A stretch of DNA of 24,000 nucleotides from Candidatus Saccharimonadales bacterium (GCA_049292975.1 JBATRZ010000058.1:3425-27424); one strand, 5' to 3'; shown: positions 1,486 through 22,733, numbered from the stretch's first letter. Notes: generated from the letters alone by a model not told the origin. Translations and numbers: made by a program.

Positions 1486-1500
1486 AATATATCTCCTCGA

Positions 1501-1598
1501 ATTATTTCACATTTTACTGTTTATATTTCACAATGATTTATCATTTTACATTTGCCACTGGCCGGAATGTGAAATAATAAATGTGAAATTAATGTAAA
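1501..1598 (+). repeat. AT-rich TTCACA/TGTGAA inverted-repeat element, copy 1, in the rplJ-rplL spacer
   Basis: The arms ATTATTTCACA (1501-1511) and TGTGAAATAAT (1568-1578) flank a GC-rich core GCCACTGGCCGG. The 12-mer ATATTTCACAAT (1523-1534) is identical to 20873-20884. TTCACATTTTAC (1506-1517) is identical to 20445-20456. Confidence 0.7.
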
Positions 1599-1633
1599 CT
1601 AGTGAGTTGTTAAATGTTAAATCGGCAGCTTCT

Positions 1634-2158: not shown

Positions 2159-2357
2159 AAGTTTCCTCTAGCTTTAGTGGGGCGCTTTTCATGATTGCCC
2201 ATTTTCGGCTTGCCTGCTGCGGTACGCAGTCACCGTATTGGAATACGGCTCCCTACGTTCCTCGCAGTCGCACCGAAACTGGTCTAATCCTGAAAACCGG
2301 TTCCCAATTTGTGAATTGCCTTGTCCATCGACCATAGGACTTGGCTGATTACAGACA
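2159..2357 (-). promoter_or_regulatory. structured rplJ 5' leader, a candidate L10(L12)4 autoregulatory leader
   Basis: About 200 nt with nested helices on the minus strand: TTTCGG...CCGAAA, CTGCG...CGCAG and CCGTATT-cca-AATACGG. The position matches the widely distributed L10 leader. Confidence 0.45.
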
Positions 2358-2392
2358 TTTAAAACGTCTTTGTATGACTACAAAGACGTTTA
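2358..2392 (-). terminator. 13-bp perfect hairpin, acting as a terminator or attenuator
   Basis: AAACGTCTTTGTA-gtca-TACAAAGACGTTT is followed by T then AAATG on the minus strand, giving a 4-U run. Confidence 0.6.
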
Positions 2393-2478
2393 ATGAATAA
2401 CAAATTGATTGTTGTTCACCTCGGCGGCATTCTTAAATCGCTGTACGCGATCGCCGCTGTCTTTGGTAATCAAGACAA

Positions 2479-2507
2479 ATTATACCGCAACAGAGGTGGT
2501 GCGTCAA
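2479..2507 (-). promoter_or_regulatory. near-consensus sigma-70 promoter, TTGACG-17-TATAAT
   Basis: On the minus strand the -35 TTGACG is at 2502-2507 and the -10 TATAAT is at 2479-2484, with a 17-nt spacer. It starts 9 nt after the stop of ORF 2516..2791. Confidence 0.7.
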
Positions 2508-3942: not shown

Positions 3943-4368
3943 ATGACATTACTAGAACCAAGACCAAATTCAGAAGTTATGCCTGACGATACCAACCCGG
4001 CCGTCCTTGCACCTTTGCACCCGTTAGAATCACTGGCTCTCTCTATGCGCCTGCACGGCAGCGCGCGCGGCCGCTTTGCCGCCGGCCAGTTCATCGCGCT
4101 TTTATGGAATGCAAGATACCAAGATGAGGCAGTCTGCCGCGTATACTCCCTCAGGGACGACAGTCACGAAGAAGAACACGCCGGCTTCATGGAAGTGCTG
4201 GAGGTTACGGCGCCAGATTTCGAGGGTATCTTGGTAGGAGCGGAACGGCTCGAGAGCCTTGGCCTTTTTGCGGGGCGTGAACTTGTCCGCCAGCTCATTG
4301 TTGAAGAACACGGCCGGGTGGTTTGCTACGCGGCGATGCCCAGCGCTAGCTTAACTGCTGAAGTTTAA
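3943..4368 (+). CDS. hypothetical protein, 141 aa
   Basis: The ORF is GC-richer than its surroundings and has a weak SD. Its 3' end overlaps the convergent tmk-thyX gene by 23 nt. I recognise no family. Confidence 0.5.
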   Translation: MTLLEPRPNSEVMPDDTNPAVLAPLHPLESLALSMRLHGSARGRFAAGQFIALLWNARYQDEAVCRVYSLRDDSHEEEHAGFMEVLEVTAPDFEGILVGAERLESLGLFAGRELVRQLIVEEHGRVVCYAAMPSASLTAEV

Positions 4369-6679
4369 ACTGGGCATATTTTTCAGCAGCCAGACGGGTA
4401 AGTTCTTCGTCCTCGCCTTTGTTTACGAATTTCATGGCGTTGCCTAGCATTGGATGGACTTCACACAGTTTGTCGTGCATTTCTTTGACAAGCTTGCGAT
4501 AACCAGGGTGGCCCTGCGGACCGGTGCGCAGCTCATGTAAATGAAATGCTTCACGGGCGTTGTAGGTGATCTTCCAGCGCATGCGGTGGCCTAGCAGCGT
4601 GGCGTACTGCGCCTCAAGTTGGTAACCCCCAGCCTGCATCTGGCTGTAAAGTCCGGCCGCTTTGTCAAAACAGGCTTCAAAATCATCGGCTAGACCGGCT
4701 TTTTCTACCAGCTCGGGTATGTCAAAGCCGTAACGGGGAGTCAGCTGCTGCCACTCCAGGCTGTCTACCATACGGTGGCGCTGCAGGTCACGGAAGATGC
4801 CGTAATCACAAACCAGGTCATAGCTGTAATGCGCTATCTCCAGCGCGCGGCCCGGGCGGTGGCGGCGGTTAAGGCGCTCGCCCATATACGTATTGAAGGC
4901 ATCGCACTTATCATCGTATGACCAACTGCGTACTTCTTTTTTCAAATCAGCCAGGCTCATGGTGCTGTGTTCGTACAACATGTGCGTCGTCAGGTCGAGC
5001 TCGTTGCGCGGCCAGTAATCTACTAGCTGCACATCATCATCCAAACTGCCCAGGTTGCCCGGCAGATGTTGCCCGGCAAAATCTTTGAGCGCCTTATATG
5101 TATTGGCGCGGTAAGCAATGGCAGCACCGCCGCGGTCGGGCTTGTCGGCGCGTTCCAAAAAAGCTGGCAGAGTTTTGCGGCATTCGGCCAGCATAGCCTC
5201 ACCCGTAGCCTTGGCTTCGGGTAATTCATCGGATAACAGGTGCATAATCAGGTTTTCCAGGGCCTGGCCGGAGGCATAGATACCAACGGTTGATTTGGCA
5301 GCAACCGGCAGCACAGCACGCACGGCATCACAAGCTTGGGCGCGGGTAGCGCTGTTAAACGCCGCATCGCGCTCTTCTTTTGGTACCGAGCTATGCTCGC
5401 GCACGTAATCGGTAGCCTTCCGGACCATACCAGAATAAAGACCAAAAATTTCGTCCATGGCGGTGCGGTAGCCCGTCTTCAGCTTCTTGGGCAAATAATC
5501 CGGTACAAAATAGCGGTACTGGCCGTTTTTATCCTTCTGGTCAAAATAAATATAACGGGTTGATTGCTCCAGATAGCTGGCCAGCCGGCCCCACTCTAGC
5601 TTCTTAGTCAGCAGATTGCTGGCGTTCTCTACCACGATATGCTGGCCCACAAGCTGTTGCACAGAGTCATCGCCGTAAGCAGTGATAACGCGCTGGAGCA
5701 GTTTTTCGTCTTTGCCTGCATCGCTGCCGGTAAACTCATCTAATAAAGTCACGCGCATGTCATCGCCGCGGCGGCTCAGACGCGCCATAGCGGCGGCTAT
5801 AGTCGTGGCGGTCAATTTATCGGTAAAGGCATAAACATCGCCGTCCGTTGCAGTAACGGCTTCCTTTAAAAAAGCGTTGCCATCTTCGGTAATCTCATAC
5901 TGGCCGTTTTTATTTTTTACCACATAGGTTTTGTCCTCGGTAATTGATTTTGGCGATTCAATCTCTTTCTTTTTTTCATCCAGAACTTCTTGGATGGGTG
6001 TTGCCGGGCTTGAAGCACTGGCGCTGATAGGGGGTGATGATTCCAGGGCGGTTTGATCCATCAGCTTGCCGTTCAGGATCTGCCAGATAGCATCATTCAC
6101 TTTGTCCGGCGCATTGTTGGCAAAGATTACCGGGTAACCGCGCTGCTTGGCTTCCCATAGGTAGCCTGCCCGCACGCGGTCCAGGAAAGCCTCGTCCAGA
6201 TTGTCGAACCGTTCACCCGCGCCGCGTTTTTCGGCGCGCTGGCGCAGTACTTGCGCGGGCGCATCAAGCACTATGGTCATATCCGGCTGCATACCGGCTA
6301 CGGCAAACTCGATGATGGTGTTGATGGTATCGTAATCCGGCACGTCGCCCCGGCCGTAGTATTGGATGGCCAAGGTGCTCAGGTAATTGCGGTCACATAA
6401 GCAGATAACGCCGTTGTCCCGGGCAGCTCGGATAACCTGCAGGGACTGGCTGCGGGCGGCATTGTACAGCAGCGCTTCGGTGCGGGTGTTCATGGGATAG
6501 CGCGGATCCTGCGTTAGCATGCGTAAGGTGCGGGCTGTTAAGTCGGACTGGCTGTCTGGCTCACGGAACAGGCGTACCGGGTAGCCCAGGGCGCGCAGGC
6601 GCCCGGCTAGCAGTTCGAGCTGCGTGGTCTTGCCGGTACCCTGTGCACCTTCGAGTACTATATAGCGGCCCCTACTCAT
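4346..6679 (-). CDS. fusion protein of thymidylate kinase (N-terminal) and a duplicated ThyX-like flavin-dependent thymidylate synthase (C-terminal)
   Basis: The N-terminus carries the Tmk P-loop IVLEGAQGTGKTT, CDRNYLSTLAIQYYGRG and the LID RAEKRGAGERFDN. A Ser/Pro/Lys-rich linker follows. Two ThyX-signature-like segments come next: WGRLASYLEQSTRY and FRDLQRHRMVDSLEWQQLTPRY. A ThyX-like C-terminus NAREAFHLHELR closes the protein. Confidence 0.8.
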   Translation of the reverse strand: MSRGRYIVLEGAQGTGKTTQLELLAGRLRALGYPVRLFREPDSQSDLTARTLRMLTQDPRYPMNTRTEALLYNAARSQSLQVIRAARDNGVICLCDRNYLSTLAIQYYGRGDVPDYDTINTIIEFAVAGMQPDMTIVLDAPAQVLRQRAEKRGAGERFDNLDEAFLDRVRAGYLWEAKQRGYPVIFANNAPDKVNDAIWQILNGKLMDQTALESSPPISASASSPATPIQEVLDEKKKEIESPKSITEDKTYVVKNKNGQYEITEDGNAFLKEAVTATDGDVYAFTDKLTATTIAAAMARLSRRGDDMRVTLLDEFTGSDAGKDEKLLQRVITAYGDDSVQQLVGQHIVVENASNLLTKKLEWGRLASYLEQSTRYIYFDQKDKNGQYRYFVPDYLPKKLKTGYRTAMDEIFGLYSGMVRKATDYVREHSSVPKEERDAAFNSATRAQACDAVRAVLPVAAKSTVGIYASGQALENLIMHLLSDELPEAKATGEAMLAECRKTLPAFLERADKPDRGGAAIAYRANTYKALKDFAGQHLPGNLGSLDDDVQLVDYWPRNELDLTTHMLYEHSTMSLADLKKEVRSWSYDDKCDAFNTYMGERLNRRHRPGRALEIAHYSYDLVCDYGIFRDLQRHRMVDSLEWQQLTPRYGFDIPELVEKAGLADDFEACFDKAAGLYSQMQAGGYQLEAQYATLLGHRMRWKITYNAREAFHLHELRTGPQGHPGYRKLVKEMHDKLCEVHPMLGNAMKFVNKGEDEELTRLAAEKYAQFKLQQLS

Positions 6680-7525: not shown

Positions 7526-7596
7526 TTACCCCACAGAACAGGTTGTGCGGGGACCCCGTCTTTACCCCACAGAACAGGTTCTGCGGGGACCCCGTT
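7526..7596 (-). repeat. tandem 36-bp repeat in two copies, each forming a hairpin
   Basis: Copies at 7526-7560 and 7562-7596 differ at 2 positions. On the minus strand CCCCGCAGAAC-ct-GTTCTGTGGGG folds with a G-U pair. Each copy also contains the palindrome CGGGGACCCCG. Confidence 0.85.
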
Positions 7597-7652: not shown

Positions 7653-8561
7653 TTAAAGCTCGGTGATAGCGACTTTGATGCCCGGACCCATAGTGGTCGA
7701 AATTGTGATGTTGCGCACGTAGTTACCCTTGATAGAGCTTGGCTTGGCAGCCTTAACGCTGGCTAGTACCGTCTGCGCGTTTTCAAGCAACTTGCTGCTG
7801 CCAAACGATACTTTGCCTATACCCAGGTGGACGATTCCGGTCGAGTCTACGCGGTATTCGACGCGGCCGGCCTTTGCTTGAGCCACTGCCTTGTCTACAT
7901 CGGTAGTGACGGTGCCGCTTTTAGGATTCGGCATCAAGCCCTTGGGCCCTAAAATACGGGCATACTTGCCAAGCTTGGGCATAAACTCCGGTGTGGCGAT
8001 AAGGATATCGAAATCAATTGTGCCCTTATCCAGGCCGGCTAGCAGAGCATCGTCGGCTACGGCGACACGTACGGTTTTGCCGGTGCCGTTTGGCAGGACA
8101 AAGTTATCGCGCAAATTCTGATCGGCCTGGCGCGGATCGACATTAAGGTTGATATGCACCTCGACAGTCGCGTCAAACCTGGTAGGACTGGTTTTAGTTG
8201 CCAGATCGACAGCATCGGCCAGGCTGTATGCTTTGTCCTTTTCAACAAGTTTGGCGGCTTCACGCATTTTTTTACCGGCGCGTTCCAGACGGGAACGGGC
8301 CGGGAGCTTAGCCGGTTTCTTGTCCCCGGATGCCTCGGTTTCAGCCTTGGATGCTTTGCGGGCCTCACGGGCTTGTAGCTCCTCCGCTTCTTTAACTGCC
8401 TTGGCGCTGCGTTTACCAGCCTTGGCAAGCTTGGTTTCAGCTACTTCTTGGGCGGTTGCTTGGCTATCTGCCTGAACCGTAAGGAGATTGCTTTCTTCAG
8501 TAATCCCACTATTAACTTCCTCTTCTGCTGCTTTTACAGCCTTCTTTTTGGCTTCTGCCAT
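7653..8561 (-). CDS. rplA: 50S ribosomal protein L1 with a charged Lys/Ala/Glu-rich N-terminal extension of about 75 aa
   Basis: The L1 core is present ([23 protein letters not shown]...LPNGTGK...[12 protein letters not shown]...[15 protein letters not shown]). The start is taken at ATG 8561 (AAAGGATAAATCT upstream) rather than TTG 8609. Confidence 0.93.
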
Positions 8562-8575
8562 AGATTTATCCTTTC

Positions 8576-8607
8576 GTGGTGCATACGGCTTAGCGGCAGC
8601 CTCCCAC
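8576..8607 (-). promoter_or_regulatory. candidate L1-binding leader that mimics the 23S rRNA L1 stalk
   Basis: The minus-strand RNA is GUGGGAGGCU-gccgcua-AGCC-guaugca-CCAC. As I recall it, GUGGGAGGCU matches the E. coli 23S L1-stalk sequence GGUGGGAGGCUUUGAAG...AGCCGACCUUGAAAUACCACC. Confidence 0.5.
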
Positions 8608-8625
8608 AATTAGTTTGATTTGTCT

Positions 8626-18508: not shown

Positions 18509-19015
18509 TTACCACTTTTTGGACTTGAATCTGAACGATTTGAAAATAAGCCCGTCCAATAGCAAGTGGCTAAAGTAGCCAACAACCGCCGCGCCGTAGA
18601 ACAACAGCGCAAACGTCAAGTTGTTGTGGTTGTGGACATACGGGATAAGCACGATGGGCAGCGGTATCAGCAGCATAGCCAGGCGCGAATGTGTCCAGCC
18701 GCGGTGCTTGCCGACTATCGGTGTCATGGCCAGCAGGCCTAAGTATGCCGCGGCCTCTAGCCGGCCGATCCAGATCAGGATAATATCTACGATAAAAGCC
18801 AGCCCGAAGAAAATATCCTGCCCCTTGGAATTCGTATCAACATCCGGCCACAGACCGAAAAGAATGGCCACCACGAATACGCCAACAAGAGTCTGCCAGT
18901 CACTGAGCATGCCCGTAGCCGAAGCAAGCAGCATGCCGGGCATAAGCAGGATGATAAGTACGAATACCGCGCATAGCACGACCGCACCTGCCGTATGGCC
19001 CTTATAGCCCGCCAC
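18509..19015 (-). CDS. YdjM/DUF457-like membrane-bound metal-dependent hydrolase
   Basis: It is a multi-TM protein with the HRGWTHS and FSHLLLDG motifs. It lies 1 nt after the upstream gene. Confidence 0.75.
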   Translation of the reverse strand: MAGYKGHTAGAVVLCAVFVLIILLMPGMLLASATGMLSDWQTLVGVFVVAILFGLWPDVDTNSKGQDIFFGLAFIVDIILIWIGRLEAAAYLGLLAMTPIVGKHRGWTHSRLAMLLIPLPIVLIPYVHNHNNLTFALLFYGAAVVGYFSHLLLDGLIFKSFRFKSKKW

Positions 19016-19679: not shown

Positions 19680-19708
19680 ACCATAATATTATAATGTAAA
19701 AACAAGTA

Positions 19709-19739
19709 TTGACGTAAGCAGTTTAGGCGGGTGTATACT
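19709..19739 (+). promoter_or_regulatory. candidate promoter TTGACG-19-TATACT for the polymerase operon
   Basis: The -35 is at 19709-19714 and the -10 at 19734-19739. The spacer is long, so this is tentative. Confidence 0.35.
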
Positions 19740-20086
19740 AGAACCAGTCACGTGCGGGCTTGGTTGGTCACCCCATCATTCCTCCGCCCGGGCTATTACG
19801 CAAACTATAGCCGCCCGAGTAAATCATAGCGATTTAACAGAGGTGCCTATTTAGCGGACATGAAGCAAAGCACTTTTCGGTTATAAATAACTCTTTCTGG
19901 CCGAAAAATCCGCGCCGCTTGTCGATGTAACATAGGCTACATCTTCGCACGGCACGAAGTTTTCATCTCAGAAATAGCTAATTTCTAACTCGAAAAAGCT
20001 TTACGTCATATCCGCAATCAAATCGTCAGAGCAGCGTGTACGTTAAGCTGCCACCCTACTAAATCTTTTAAGTGGAGTGATTTGAT

Positions 20087-20407
20087 ATGCGTAATAGCCT
20101 CTCTTTTAACCAAAACAAAAATGCCGTCGATGTCCTGTTTTCGTTCAGCGGCCGTGACCAGTATGCCCGGCCGGTCCGCCTGACCTGGGATGGTGAAGAT
20201 TATACCTTAGGCGGCGTGCAGTTTTGGTATGCCGAGCATAAGGGCGACATCCTGGTGCACCACTACCGTGTCAGCGACGAACATGGCGAGTACACTTTTG
20301 AGCTCAGTCTTGAGACCGAGAATCTTACCTGGAACCTGGACAGGGCTACTAAGTCCGGCTCGACTGCCGCACTGGCCGGCCGGAAGTTTGCGGGGGCAAC
20401 GTTATGA
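20087..20407 (+). CDS. small protein P1 of unrecognised family, paralogue of P2
   Basis: 106 aa with GGAG 9 nt upstream of the ATG. In a hand alignment with P2, 22 of 58 positions are identical. Confidence 0.75.
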   Translation: MRNSLSFNQNKNAVDVLFSFSGRDQYARPVRLTWDGEDYTLGGVQFWYAEHKGDILVHHYRVSDEHGEYTFELSLETENLTWNLDRATKSGSTAALAGRKFAGATL

Positions 20408-20421
20408 AAAATTTAACACTA

Positions 20422-20526
20422 GGCAATTCACAGTTCACAATAAATTCACATTTTACATGTAGCATTGCCGCTGCAGCCCCTTGTGAATTGGTAATTGATA
20501 ATTTAATTAAAATTGTAAATTGTAAG
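20422..20526 (+). repeat. AT-rich TTCACA/TGTGAA element, copy A
   Basis: CAATTCACA (20424-20432) and TGTGAATTG (20483-20491) flank a GC-rich core GCCGCTGCAGCCCC. It is collinear with copy B and copy 1. Confidence 0.75.
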
Positions 20527-20555
20527 TTGAAAATTGCTCCTGAAAGGAGCCAGCT

Positions 20556-20843
20556 ATGAGGCCGTCACTTAATGAACCGGTGAGCGTGGTCTGGTACTAC
20601 AACGCCCGGACCCGGCACATGCAGCCCTACATGCTGACCTGGAACAACCAGGATTACCGCCTGGGCAAGATAGACTTCTGGCATAAGACCTGGGCCGGCA
20701 AGCACCAAGTCCATCACTTTTCCATCGCCGGCAAAGACGGTAACGCGTATTTTAAGCTTGCTCTCAACACGGATACGCTTAACTGGACGCTAGAGGAGTA
20801 CATGAGCAGTCATGACGCCTCAATAACATACGGAAGGAGTTAA
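20556..20843 (+). CDS. small protein P2 of unrecognised family, paralogue of P1
   Basis: 95 aa with GGAG 6 nt upstream of the ATG. Confidence 0.75.
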   Translation: MRPSLNEPVSVVWYYNARTRHMQPYMLTWNNQDYRLGKIDFWHKTWAGKHQVHHFSIAGKDGNAYFKLALNTDTLNWTLEEYMSSHDASITYGRS

Positions 20844-20851
20844 TATATGAC

Positions 20852-20978
20852 AAATTTCACATGTACCAATTCATATTTCACAATAATTTCACGGTTTTCA
20901 TTTGTCAAACGCTTCCGGCCTCATTGTGAATTGATAAATGATAATTTAATGAAAAATGAAAACTGTAAAATGATAAAT
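20852..20978 (+). repeat. AT-rich TTCACA/TGTGAA element, copy B
   Basis: About 70% identical by eye to copy A over about 130 nt. The anchors ATTTCACAT and ATATTTCACAAT are 19 nt apart, exactly as in copy 1. Confidence 0.75.
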
Positions 20979-20998
20979 TCCTCTGAAAGGGGGCTGCT

Positions 20999-21169
20999 AT
21001 GAAAGACCGCAAGAAACGTAAGCAGCGCGAAGAAGTACGCAAGATCCTGCATACGATGCGGCTGGAGCTGGCCGCCCAGCGCCTGGCGCAAGAGAAAAGC
21101 CCGCGCCAAGACTCTACGCTGTATCTGCAGGATCTCATGAAACAGTCTGCCCAATCCCTGGCAGGTTGA
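20999..21169 (+). CDS. 56-aa basic, helical small protein P3 (MKDRKKRKQREEVRKILHTMRLELAAQRLAQEKSPRQDSTLYLQDLMKQSAQSLAG)
   Basis: It is not in the ORF track because it is under 60 aa. AGGGGG lies 5-6 nt before the ATG. Its TGA stop at 21167-21169 is 1 nt before the polymerase ATG. Confidence 0.55.
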   Translation: MKDRKKRKQREEVRKILHTMRLELAAQRLAQEKSPRQDSTLYLQDLMKQSAQSLAG

Positions 21170-21170
21170 T

Positions 21171-22733
21171 ATGGGGCTACGTGATTTACCCATAAATAAA
21201 GCCGAGGCAAGAGTTATGCACATTGATCTTAACTCGTGCTTTGCCATTATCGAGCAGCAGGCTAACCGCCTGCTGCGTGGCCGGCCGGTGGGTGTAGCCG
21301 CCTATGATACGCCGCGGGGCTTTGTGCTGGCTGCCAGCTACGAGGCCAAACGCATGGGAATAAAGCTCGGCGTCAATGTGCAAGAGGCCCGGGCTATGTG
21401 CCCGGGCATTGTCATCACCACCCCTGATCCTGCCAAGTACCGCGAGGCTCATGCGCGTTTCAAGGAGCTTATGTTGGAGTACACATCCGACGTCGCACCC
21501 AAGAGCATAGACGAGTTCGTGCTGGATCTGACGGGGTCGCCTATTCTACGTTCAGGCAAAAGCATGGAAGACATCGGCCTGGAAATCAAAGACGCCGTGC
21601 GCGAACGCTTAGGCGAGTGGGTAACGGTGAATACCGGTATCGGCCCCAACCGTTTCCTGGCCAAGTATGCCGCCGGATTTGATAAGCCCGATGGCATGAC
21701 ACGGATAGATTGGCGCAACCTGGAAAACTACTTCAGGTGCCGCACGCCTCAGACTTGTGCTAGTTTTGGTGCGCCAGCGAGGACTGCAAAGGAGACGTAT
21801 CCAAATACGGTAACTGCAGACCGGAGCGGACAAGCCAAGAATAGCCAAGAGGCCGGCAGAGTTTTAGGCAAACCCAAAAAGCCGGCTGGCCGGTGTGGGG
21901 TGTGCGGCGGAATGGATTTAACCGATCTGCCGGGAATAAATACCCGTTACAAGCGCCGTCTGCAGGCCTACGGCATCATGACGCCCCTGGACTTCCTGCG
22001 GGCAGACAGGCGGATTTTAGAAAAAGTCGTCTTTAAGTCCATCGTGGGCTACTACTGGTATCTGCGTTTGCGCGGATATGAGATTGATAAGTTTGAGACC
22101 AGGCGCAGTACCATCGGTCATCAATACGCCCTGCCTCATAAGACGTTTAACCGCGATGAACTGGCCAGGCTGCTTATGAAGCTGTGCGAAAAAGTCGGGC
22201 GCAGGCTGCGCAAAGCCGGCCTGACCGCCGGCGGTATCCACCTGTACCTGAGCTTCGTCAGCTATCAGGAGATGTCAGGCCCAAGAAACTCCGGATTTAT
22301 AGAGGCGCGGCCAGAGCCCTCGCACCAGGACGGCCAGTCTGCCGGCTTTGCCAGCGGGCAGGCTGGCCCGGTACAGAAACTCTGGTGGCATCAGGGCGAA
22401 AAACTAGGATACCGCCTATACAGTACCGAGAGTGTCTACCGTGCGGCTAGGAGCCTGCTTGGGCGGGCGGACATCCCATATAAGGTGCGCGGCATGAGTA
22501 TCACCACCTTCGACCTGGCCCCGGCAGATCCCGAGCAACTCAACCTATTCGACACTGTACAAGGTTCAACCTTGTACAGTCAGCGGAGTTTTAGGGCTGA
22601 GCGCCATATCTCGGATGCAGTGGACGAGATTAATAACAGATACGGCGAATTCGTCATCACCCCGGCCACCATGATGGATATGAACGGCGAAATCCTCGAC
22701 CGCATCGCTTTCGGCAATATGAGGGATGTATAA
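21171..22733 (+). CDS. Y-family (UmuC-like) translesion DNA polymerase carrying two insertions
   Basis: The motifs HIDLNSCFAIIE, SIDEFVLDLTG, GIGPNRFLAKYA and LPGINTRYKRRL are present, along with the clamp-type motif QLNLF and the C-terminal AVDEINNRYG. An alternative start is ATG 21216, which has GAGG 8 nt upstream. Confidence 0.9.
   Translation: MGLRDLPINKAEARVMHIDLNSCFAIIEQQANRLLRGRPVGVAAYDTPRGFVLAASYEAKRMGIKLGVNVQEARAMCPGIVITTPDPAKYREAHARFKELMLEYTSDVAPKSIDEFVLDLTGSPILRSGKSMEDIGLEIKDAVRERLGEWVTVNTGIGPNRFLAKYAAGFDKPDGMTRIDWRNLENYFRCRTPQTCASFGAPARTAKETYPNTVTADRSGQAKNSQEAGRVLGKPKKPAGRCGVCGGMDLTDLPGINTRYKRRLQAYGIMTPLDFLRADRRILEKVVFKSIVGYYWYLRLRGYEIDKFETRRSTIGHQYALPHKTFNRDELARLLMKLCEKVGRRLRKAGLTAGGIHLYLSFVSYQEMSGPRNSGFIEARPEPSHQDGQSAGFASGQAGPVQKLWWHQGEKLGYRLYSTESVYRAARSLLGRADIPYKVRGMSITTFDLAPADPEQLNLFDTVQGSTLYSQRSFRAERHISDAVDEINNRYGEFVITPATMMDMNGEILDRIAFGNMRDV

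Follow-up and report, generated by a model that had tools for sequence, protein, structure and literature searches.

Operon spacers of a Candidatus Saccharimonadales genome as probable gene-less relatives of IVS-type PF05635 cassettes

Two kinds of element close to the one described here are already known, namely IVSs with an S23p ORF and repeats of the MITE and REP type. The Correia elements (NEMIS) of Neisseria are inverted-repeat elements of 100-155 bp that occur in many copies next to or between genes, are co-transcribed and are cleaved by RNase III. Their TIRs are defined, and they have a TA duplication and an IHF site; an associated gene-carrying form and tandem-word arms are not known for them. 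To our knowledge, the spread of 23S rRNA IVSs and the role of the S23p/PF05635 ORF have never been explained; the question of its function dates from the 1990s. RNase III cuts IVS stems (PMC4990558), CPR rRNA genes carry short IVS-like insertions and 23S_rRNA_IVP ORFs (PMC11270868), and PF05635 is reported to resemble the DGR accessory protein Avd (PMC10053308). A literature search for such elements outside rRNA genes found no paper.

In the genome of a Candidatus Saccharimonadales bacterium, we analysed two long spacers that separate three cistrons of one operon. The spacers are probably gene-less copies of a palindromic insertion element of 110-155 nt, a 'word hairpin', and non-autonomous-looking relatives of an IVS-type PF05635 cassette. 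What appears to be new, as far as we found no paper on it, is the occurrence of IVS-type cassette arms as ~20 gene-less inserts at mRNA junctions, with genome-specific words that track the PF05635 copy.

Two operon spacers and a third copy in the window

The window, which is the whole stretch of 24,000 nucleotides that was analysed (C58:3425-27424), comes from a 93%-complete MAG of 0.86 Mb on 62 contigs with 52% GC. The relatives of this source genome are uncultured Candidatus Saccharibacteria MAGs. An earlier note on this DNA had named the host of the spacers a polymerase operon; this holds for one gene only, the Y-family polymerase (IMS) at 21171-22733, which is followed by a glutamate dehydrogenase gene. 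The P1 and P2 pair is kept in 16 of 18 family genomes searched and belongs to no Pfam family. The features, in window coordinates, are:

20087-20407, plus strand: P1, 106 aa, without Pfam match; its stop TGA lies within an ATGA that abuts element copy 1
20408-20555 (148 nt), plus strand: element copy 1, filling the P1/P2 gap; 96.4 bits with the family model
~20411-20457, plus strand: left arm of copy 1, TTCACA/TTTACA words
20458-20480, plus strand: GC core of copy 1, TGTAGCATTGCCGCTGCAGCCCC
20481-20536, plus strand: right arm of copy 1 (TTGTGAATTG...AATTG words)
20537-20549, plus strand: element-borne SD mini-hairpin of copy 1, CTCCTGAAAGGAG
20556-20843, plus strand: P2, 95 aa, a paralogue of P1 (31% identity)
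20844-20998 (155 nt), plus strand: element copy 2, filling the P2/P3 gap; 96.1 bits with the family model; palindrome degraded
20852-20907, plus strand: left arm of copy 2
20908-20923, plus strand: GC core of copy 2
20924-20979, plus strand: right arm of copy 2
20980-20993, plus strand: SD mini-hairpin of copy 2, CCTCTGAAAGGGGG
20999-21169, plus strand: P3, 56 aa, basic
21171-22733, plus strand: Y-family DNA polymerase (IMS, IMS_C), last gene of the operon
1486-1633, minus strand: element copy 3, the whole rplJ/rplL spacer; 75.4 bits and E 2e-21 with the family model, blastn E 2.5e-9
1566-1622, minus strand: left arm of copy 3 in sense orientation
1554-1565, minus strand: core of copy 3, CCGGCCAGTGGC
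1500-1553, minus strand: right arm of copy 3
1486-1499, minus strand: SD of copy 3
2309-2318, plus strand: lone TTGTGAATTG 10-mer in the rplJ 5' UTR, outside any element copy

The two spacers of the operon have a GC content of ~31-33% and are homologous, as the earlier note had proposed by eye. In a blastn search against the whole genome they were 74-76% identical over 135-156 nt, with E values of 1e-17 to 1e-19, and at an offset of 443 nt copies 1 and 2 share ungapped blocks of 77% identity over 56 nt and 80% over 79 nt. The architecture described in that note was also recovered, in sharper form, as several TTCACA units, a GC core, TGTGAA-type units and an AT-rich tail. The 10-mer TTGTGAATTG is found exactly at 20481, 20924 and 2309. 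With 0.05 occurrences expected per window, three matches arose in none of 100 shuffles. The occurrence at 2309-2318, which had been counted with the others, is present but isolated, with the Rfam L10 leader (2350-2484, minus strand) on one side and the rplJ start on the other. It has no nhmmer or CM match and no other element features, and is not an element copy. The full third copy claimed at 1501-1598 is real and comprises the entire rplJ/rplL spacer, 1486-1633. The spacers were unmatched by Rfam at the gathering score, where the matches in the window were a tRNA and the L10 leader only.

The folding of the copies as RNA is uneven. Copy 1 folds in the sense orientation with -36.8 kcal/mol (z -3.6) and copy 3 with z -2.6, and for copy 2 neither strand does better than its shuffles (z -0.47 and -0.35). 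Of 17 copies, 14 fold better as the antisense than as the mRNA strand; C is retained in the left arm, and the right arm is G-depleted, with 50% A. Selection for an A-rich unstructured leader before the downstream start, or for avoidance of perfect dsRNA in the mRNA, is a possible reason for this strand asymmetry. RNAalifold on a MAFFT alignment of 14 copies found no consensus pairs on either strand, because the tandem words shift register between copies and pairs are not kept in columns.

Other repeats and genes in the window were recorded. At 7526-7595 a GC-rich palindromic unit of 34 nt, TTACCCCACAGAACAGGTTGTGCGGGGACCCCGT, is present as two tandem copies with 97% identity, and the akin CCCCATGAAACAGGTTTCATGGGGAC units on many contigs form a second, unrelated hairpin repeat family. 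RplA (7653-8609, minus strand, 318 aa) has a K/A/E-rich N-terminal extension of ~100 aa; an in-frame element was considered there and rejected, as only the extension and no palindrome was present. A YdjM-like membrane protein gene (18509-19015, minus strand) lies near the P1-P2-P3-Y-family polymerase operon (19680-22733).

Genome-wide copies and the orthologous sites in relatives

Three copies were used to seed an nhmmer search of the contigs of the genome, and a sequence-only Infernal model of 14 copies served as the family model. This genome-wide scan, which the earlier note had proposed, gave ~20 loci on 12 contigs with nhmmer and 43 family-model matches when both strands are counted; all compared genomes are MAGs, so that copy counts are lower bounds. 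Nearly every copy exactly spans the stop-to-start gap of co-directional genes, and 17 of 18 copies point the same way with respect to the genes. Pfam was used to name the flanking genes, and RpoB and RpoC motifs to name rpoB/rpoC. The occupied junctions are:

Confirmed by Pfam or motif: rplJ/rplL, rpoB/rpoC, rpsC/rplP, rplX/rplE, groES/groEL, rpsB/tsf
Further confirmed junctions: rpsF/ssb, atpH/atpA, ybaB/recR, upstream of gatB, pgk/tpiA
Genes named by sequence reading only: pilB/pilT/pilC junctions

The element is 92-155 nt long and holds no ORF. In gene orientation it is built of four to seven tandem 7-nt words (TTTCACA, TTTACA, TTAACA) followed by a short GC core, and of a right arm of complementary words (TGTGAAA, TGTAAAA, TGAAAAT) followed by an SD, often in a mini-hairpin TTGCTCCTGAAAGGAGC. 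The left arm is approximately the reverse complement of the right arm. The GC core is more conserved than the arms, and the hairpin core CAGCGCAGCTTNGCTGCTGCC is conserved in six copies, one of which has TTAGCAA-type arms. This core was also observed to be near-identical across genera and across different arm words (C58:54055-54075; G009:C31:3532-3654; G012:C1:78438-78557). The copies align over their full length in conserved word order, with a mean column identity of 56% (MAFFT, 14 copies), which indicates that they are homologous and not just alike in composition. As a negative control, the AT-richer sister genome (40% GC) gave one weak match and 11 of 20 family genomes gave none. No counts were taken from a generic seed-pair scan for word hairpins, in which other palindromic repeat families of the genome dominated.

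To compare occupied and empty sites, we used the whole genome of the sister, G001, a member of the same genus that groups with the source genome in a five-protein tree (support 0.83) and has one weak family match. Fifteen orthologous junctions were mapped in G001 via the flanking proteins, and the element was absent from all of them. Twelve of these junctions do not exceed 34 nt and typically take the form of TAATG or ATGA overlaps with the SD inside the upstream gene, and the rplJ/rplL spacer is 26 nt. At P1/P2, G001 has an ATGA stop/start overlap in the sequence GCGACAGCATGAGGCCG, and the source genome has ACGTTATGA, 148 nt and ATGAGGCCG, with ATGA on both sides. Both P1/P2 and P2/P3 are ATGA overlaps in most relatives, P2/P3 being so in G007 and G008. 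Since the orthologous sites are empty in the sister, the copies are best read as insertions. This comparison shows insertion at tight stop/start junctions after the split from G001, with an ATGA overlap interrupted at P1/P2.

At the occupied junctions the element stands between the retained upstream stop, with ATGA on the left, and the downstream start. The same comparison shows an element-borne SD and a new or duplicated ATG that keep the downstream gene translatable, the SD replacing one that was once embedded in the upstream gene. Copies 1 and 2 are flanked by (T)ATGA where the empty site has a single ATGA, and other copies have no clear duplication; the flanking ATGA may be a target-site duplication or could also stem from selection for a stop plus a start.

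Relatives carry inserts of their own at these sites. Several genomes have other hairpin inserts directly after the P1/P2 or P2/P3 ATGA. The P1/P2 insert of G005 is a recognisable homologue with the core TAGCGCGGCTTCGCCGCTGCC and the tail AATTGCTCCTGAAGGGGGG, and since the G005 clade has a different P2 start (ATGCGTGAR), the junction was struck independently. A different palindromic insert of ~100 nt, ATCCCGTTATAACCC...GGGTTATAACGGGAT, was seen between two ATGA at P2/P3 in G001, G005 and G014 (loci L099, L102 and L103). Sites occupied elsewhere and empty in the source genome are dcd/thyX-tmk in G004 and a C2 junction in G005. In the window, the corresponding gene (4346-6679, minus strand) encodes a 777-aa thymidylate kinase-ThyX fusion and overlaps the upstream dCTP deaminase gene; it is at that junction that G004 has its element copy. 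The junction C58:45785-45902 holds a CAAGTAA-word hairpin in the source genome versus a TTAGCAA-word copy in G009. Among 30 relatives, the rplJ/rplL spacer is either shorter than ~45 nt or is a hairpin of this build made up of different words (TTTACCA, TTGATA, TGTCAC or ACAGCTTACAG). Together, the site comparison argues strongly for insertion and turnover. The patchy distribution could also reflect repeated loss.

The earlier note had named a MITE- or REP-like mobile repeat among its readings, and this is the one borne out by ~20 dispersed copies, empty sites in the sister genome and a patchy distribution among relatives. Like a MITE, the element is short and non-coding, with terminal inverted repeats, dispersed copies and presence/absence differences between genomes.

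PF05635 cassettes and the 23S rRNA gene

The source genome has nine PF05635 genes above the Pfam cut-off, and each of the nine stands between inverted arrays of 7-nt words, the word differing from cassette to cassette. The gene at C62:25096-25458 is bracketed by the words of the present family (TTTCACA, TGTGAAA), with AATTTACATTTCACATTTCACAATTCACAATAATTTCACA upstream and AATGTGAAATGTGAAATGTGAATTGATAAATGA downstream. This gene-carrying partner with the same ends (C62:25055-25503) encodes PF05635 and no known transposase, and stands directly upstream of holA. The same PF05635 subfamily with AT-rich word arms precedes the holA orthologue in G005, G009 and G014, and in G012 it stands at another site; its location upstream of holA is shared by four genera. 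With their arms also found around the PF05635 gene that precedes holA, the spacers appear to be non-autonomous-looking relatives of an IVS-type cassette. Other cassettes of the source genome also have gene-less counterparts. Among solved structures, the closest relative of the PF05635 protein is 2RLD, an uncharacterised protein whose entry contains five chains. The PF05635 ORFs of C62:25096-25458 and of the cassettes in G005, G009 and G012 (L136-L143) were seen to start right after the last left-arm word, without an SD.

Family-model matches, counted on both strands, and PF05635 genes were tabulated for 20 family genomes:

G000 (source genome): 43 model matches, 9 PF05635 genes
G005: 33 model matches, 4 PF05635 genes
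G012: 28 model matches, 5 PF05635 genes
G009: 27 model matches, 6 PF05635 genes
G004: 22 model matches, 3 PF05635 genes
G014: 18 model matches, 4 PF05635 genes
G010: 8 model matches, 2 PF05635 genes
G008: 4 model matches, 0 PF05635 genes
G001: 1 model match, 0 PF05635 genes
11 other genomes: 0 model matches, 0-2 PF05635 genes

The element and PF05635 counts covary across the 20 genomes, which is suggestive, related genomes not being independent samples. The arm words differ between genomes: TTTCACA in the source genome, TTTTCAA in G004, G005 and G012, and TTAGCAA and TGTCAC in G014. Comparison of cassette arm words with gene-less arm words by 6-mer cosine gave 0.71 within the source genome versus 0.31 or less for other genomes, and the own genome was the best word match for five of eight cassettes.

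The 23S rRNA gene on contig C37 also contains, at helix 45, the classical location of IVSs, a gene-less word hairpin of ~100 nt, (AAGTTGA)x4...ACTTT. The same 23S rRNA gene (C37:210-342 and C37:408-2131) has a further insertion of ~980 nt between model positions 1302 and 2043. The source genome has rnc (RNase III). No reverse transcriptase (PF00078) was found in the 93%-complete MAG, which leaves a DGR-like or retro-mobility route unsupported in this MAG. No transposase is associated with the element, and PF05635 has no known mobility function.

A link to RAYT genes was considered and rejected, as the four Y1_Tnp genes are flanked by unrelated GC-rich perfect palindromes. These Y1_Tnp/RAYT-like genes are at C53:900-1649, C30:11916-12578, C15:1003-1620 and C22:39588-40277, and the palindromes are GTGAGAGGACAGTCCTCTCAC, AAAGGGTCCGACCCTTT and CTAGAGGCCTGGCCTCTAG. 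Genes and palindromes together are a REP-RAYT-type system separate from the word hairpins.

Interpretation and comparison with known systems

The element would be co-transcribed with the operon. A well-preserved palindrome is predicted to form a long imperfect hairpin and might be an RNase III substrate as in the 23S rRNA IVS; a cut by RNase III would then uncouple the cistrons. Such processing in mRNA is proposed by analogy only, since the mRNA-sense hairpin is weak, as judged from copy 2, the antisense bias and the lack of a consensus structure. The host most likely tolerates the element as a passenger and does not need it as a signal.

The opposite reading is that the host has selected an intercistronic RNA element, in which RNase III cleavage or 3'-end protection sets the stabilities or the translation of the cistrons, comparable to the REP/BIME stabilisers and the E. 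coli rplL-rpoB processing site. The copies indeed lie in highly expressed operons, 17 of 18 in one orientation, and carry their own SD; some fold well (z -3.6 for copy 1 and -2.6 for the rplJ/rplL copy), and rnc is present in the genome. We nevertheless consider this unlikely. In the sister and most relatives the gaps in these operons measure 0-30 nt, the occupied sites vary by genome, and one site can hold different word families. In addition, the fold of copy 2 is lost and sense folds are worse than antisense folds. The turnover of sites and the decay of copy 2 thus argue against a general requirement for a processing element, and host-selected processing is possible for individual copies. 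An operator cluster for a shared regulator, which the earlier note had also offered, is a still poorer candidate. It would take the TTTCACA/TGTGAAA words as an array bound by one DNA-binding regulator that co-regulates the operons, and it draws on the dyad arrangement of tandem fixed-sequence words and on their being genome-specific, as is expected if they are read by a protein. However, the sites are intercistronic rather than at promoters, the housekeeping operons that host them have unrelated functions (ribosomal proteins, rpoBC, groESL, ATP synthase), and the array is absent from the orthologous junctions of the sister, whose versions of these operons have gaps of 0-30 nt. Moreover, 40-60 nt separate the TTCACA and TGTGAA halves, which stand in the opposite order to a CRP-type TGTGA-N6-TCACA dyad, and the same architecture is found inside the 23S rRNA gene. 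Taken together, this makes a shared operator very improbable.

Two further readings fare worse. Internal sigma-70 promoters that give each cistron its own transcript, the remaining option of the earlier note, are hardly credible. The spacers are AT-rich with TTNACA-like and TAAAAT-like hexamers, and a consensus scan found six promoter-like sites versus 2.5 +/- 1.5 in shuffles, but four of these are antisense to the genes. The remaining two, in gene orientation, are weak 9-of-12 matches with CACAAT as the -10; they fall within the left arm, over 100 nt away from the start codon. Promoters elsewhere in the genome are by eye TTGACA with the extended -10 TGTTAYAAT. The TGTGA-17 nt-TAAT spacing that the note had found conserved is a by-product of homology, the second hexamer (TAATTA, TAATGA) having no T at position 6. 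A local tandem duplication of a gene plus its spacer (P1 with spacer, P2 with spacer), the outcome that the earlier note had set against its own reading, is excluded. In its favour are the paralogy of P1 and P2 and the 443-nt offset of the repeat, but the two genes are only 31% identical against 75% for the spacers, ~18 further spacer copies lie on 12 contigs, and at least eight relatives have the P1/P2 pair with an ATGA overlap and no spacer.

Gene-less copies of a palindromic insertion element related to the PF05635 cassette therefore remain our preferred reading of the spacers. A tentative extension, which we regard as doubtful, is that the PF05635/Avd-like protein of the resident cassette recognises the heptamer words (four to seven per arm) and so drives the cassette and its gene-less copies to spread or to become homogenised. 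The spacers would then be the non-autonomous members, S23p/PF05635 would be the specificity factor, and IVS-type elements would be a protein-dependent mobile class. Word recognition by the PF05635 protein, if true, would explain why words differ from genome to genome yet match between cassette and gene-less copies within a genome. One build that occurs with and without the gene, in rRNA and at ~20 mRNA junctions, also offers a concrete, testable system for the origin of IVSs. A genome of 0.86 Mb tolerates inserts of 100-150 nt that break translational coupling in rpoBC, groESL and ribosomal-protein operons. In annotation, long AT-rich operon spacers of Saccharibacteria should not be taken as promoters or operators.

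The element shares features with several described systems. Rickettsia palindromic elements (RPEs) are likewise palindromic repeats that spread in a reduced genome and are tolerated in essential loci; they are typically translated in frame within genes, whereas the copies described here are intercistronic and untranslated. Correia/NEMIS elements are alike in size, inverted repeats and location, and unrelated in sequence. With REP/BIME and REPIN-RAYT systems the element has in common dispersed extragenic palindromes, often between co-transcribed genes, and a repeat sequence that covaries with a resident gene flanked by the same repeats. However, REPs are GC-rich hairpins of 20-40 nt tied to a Y1 transposase, and the gene associated with the present element is PF05635. 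MITEs are also short and non-coding with inverted-repeat ends, presence/absence differences and a longer gene-carrying relative with the same ends; the gene-carrying relative of the present element encodes no recognisable transposase, and a target-site duplication is at most a candidate, at copies 1 and 2.

The 23S rRNA IVSs of Coxiella burnetii (helix-45), Leptospira and CPR bacteria differ from copies 1-3 in their location, the copies lying in mRNA operon junctions and not in helix 25 or 45. They have a unique 28-bp stem in contrast to arms that are tandem arrays of 7-nt words, and, unlike them, the element copies carry an SD; excision by RNase III is predicted for the element by analogy. 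Common to both are a long stem formed by terminal inverted repeats, a loop that holds a PF05635 ORF where the gene is present, and an AT-rich composition relative to the genome with a sporadic distribution (PMC4990558; PMC11270868). The two also meet in the source genome itself, where a gene-less member stands at helix-45 of the 23S gene on C37.
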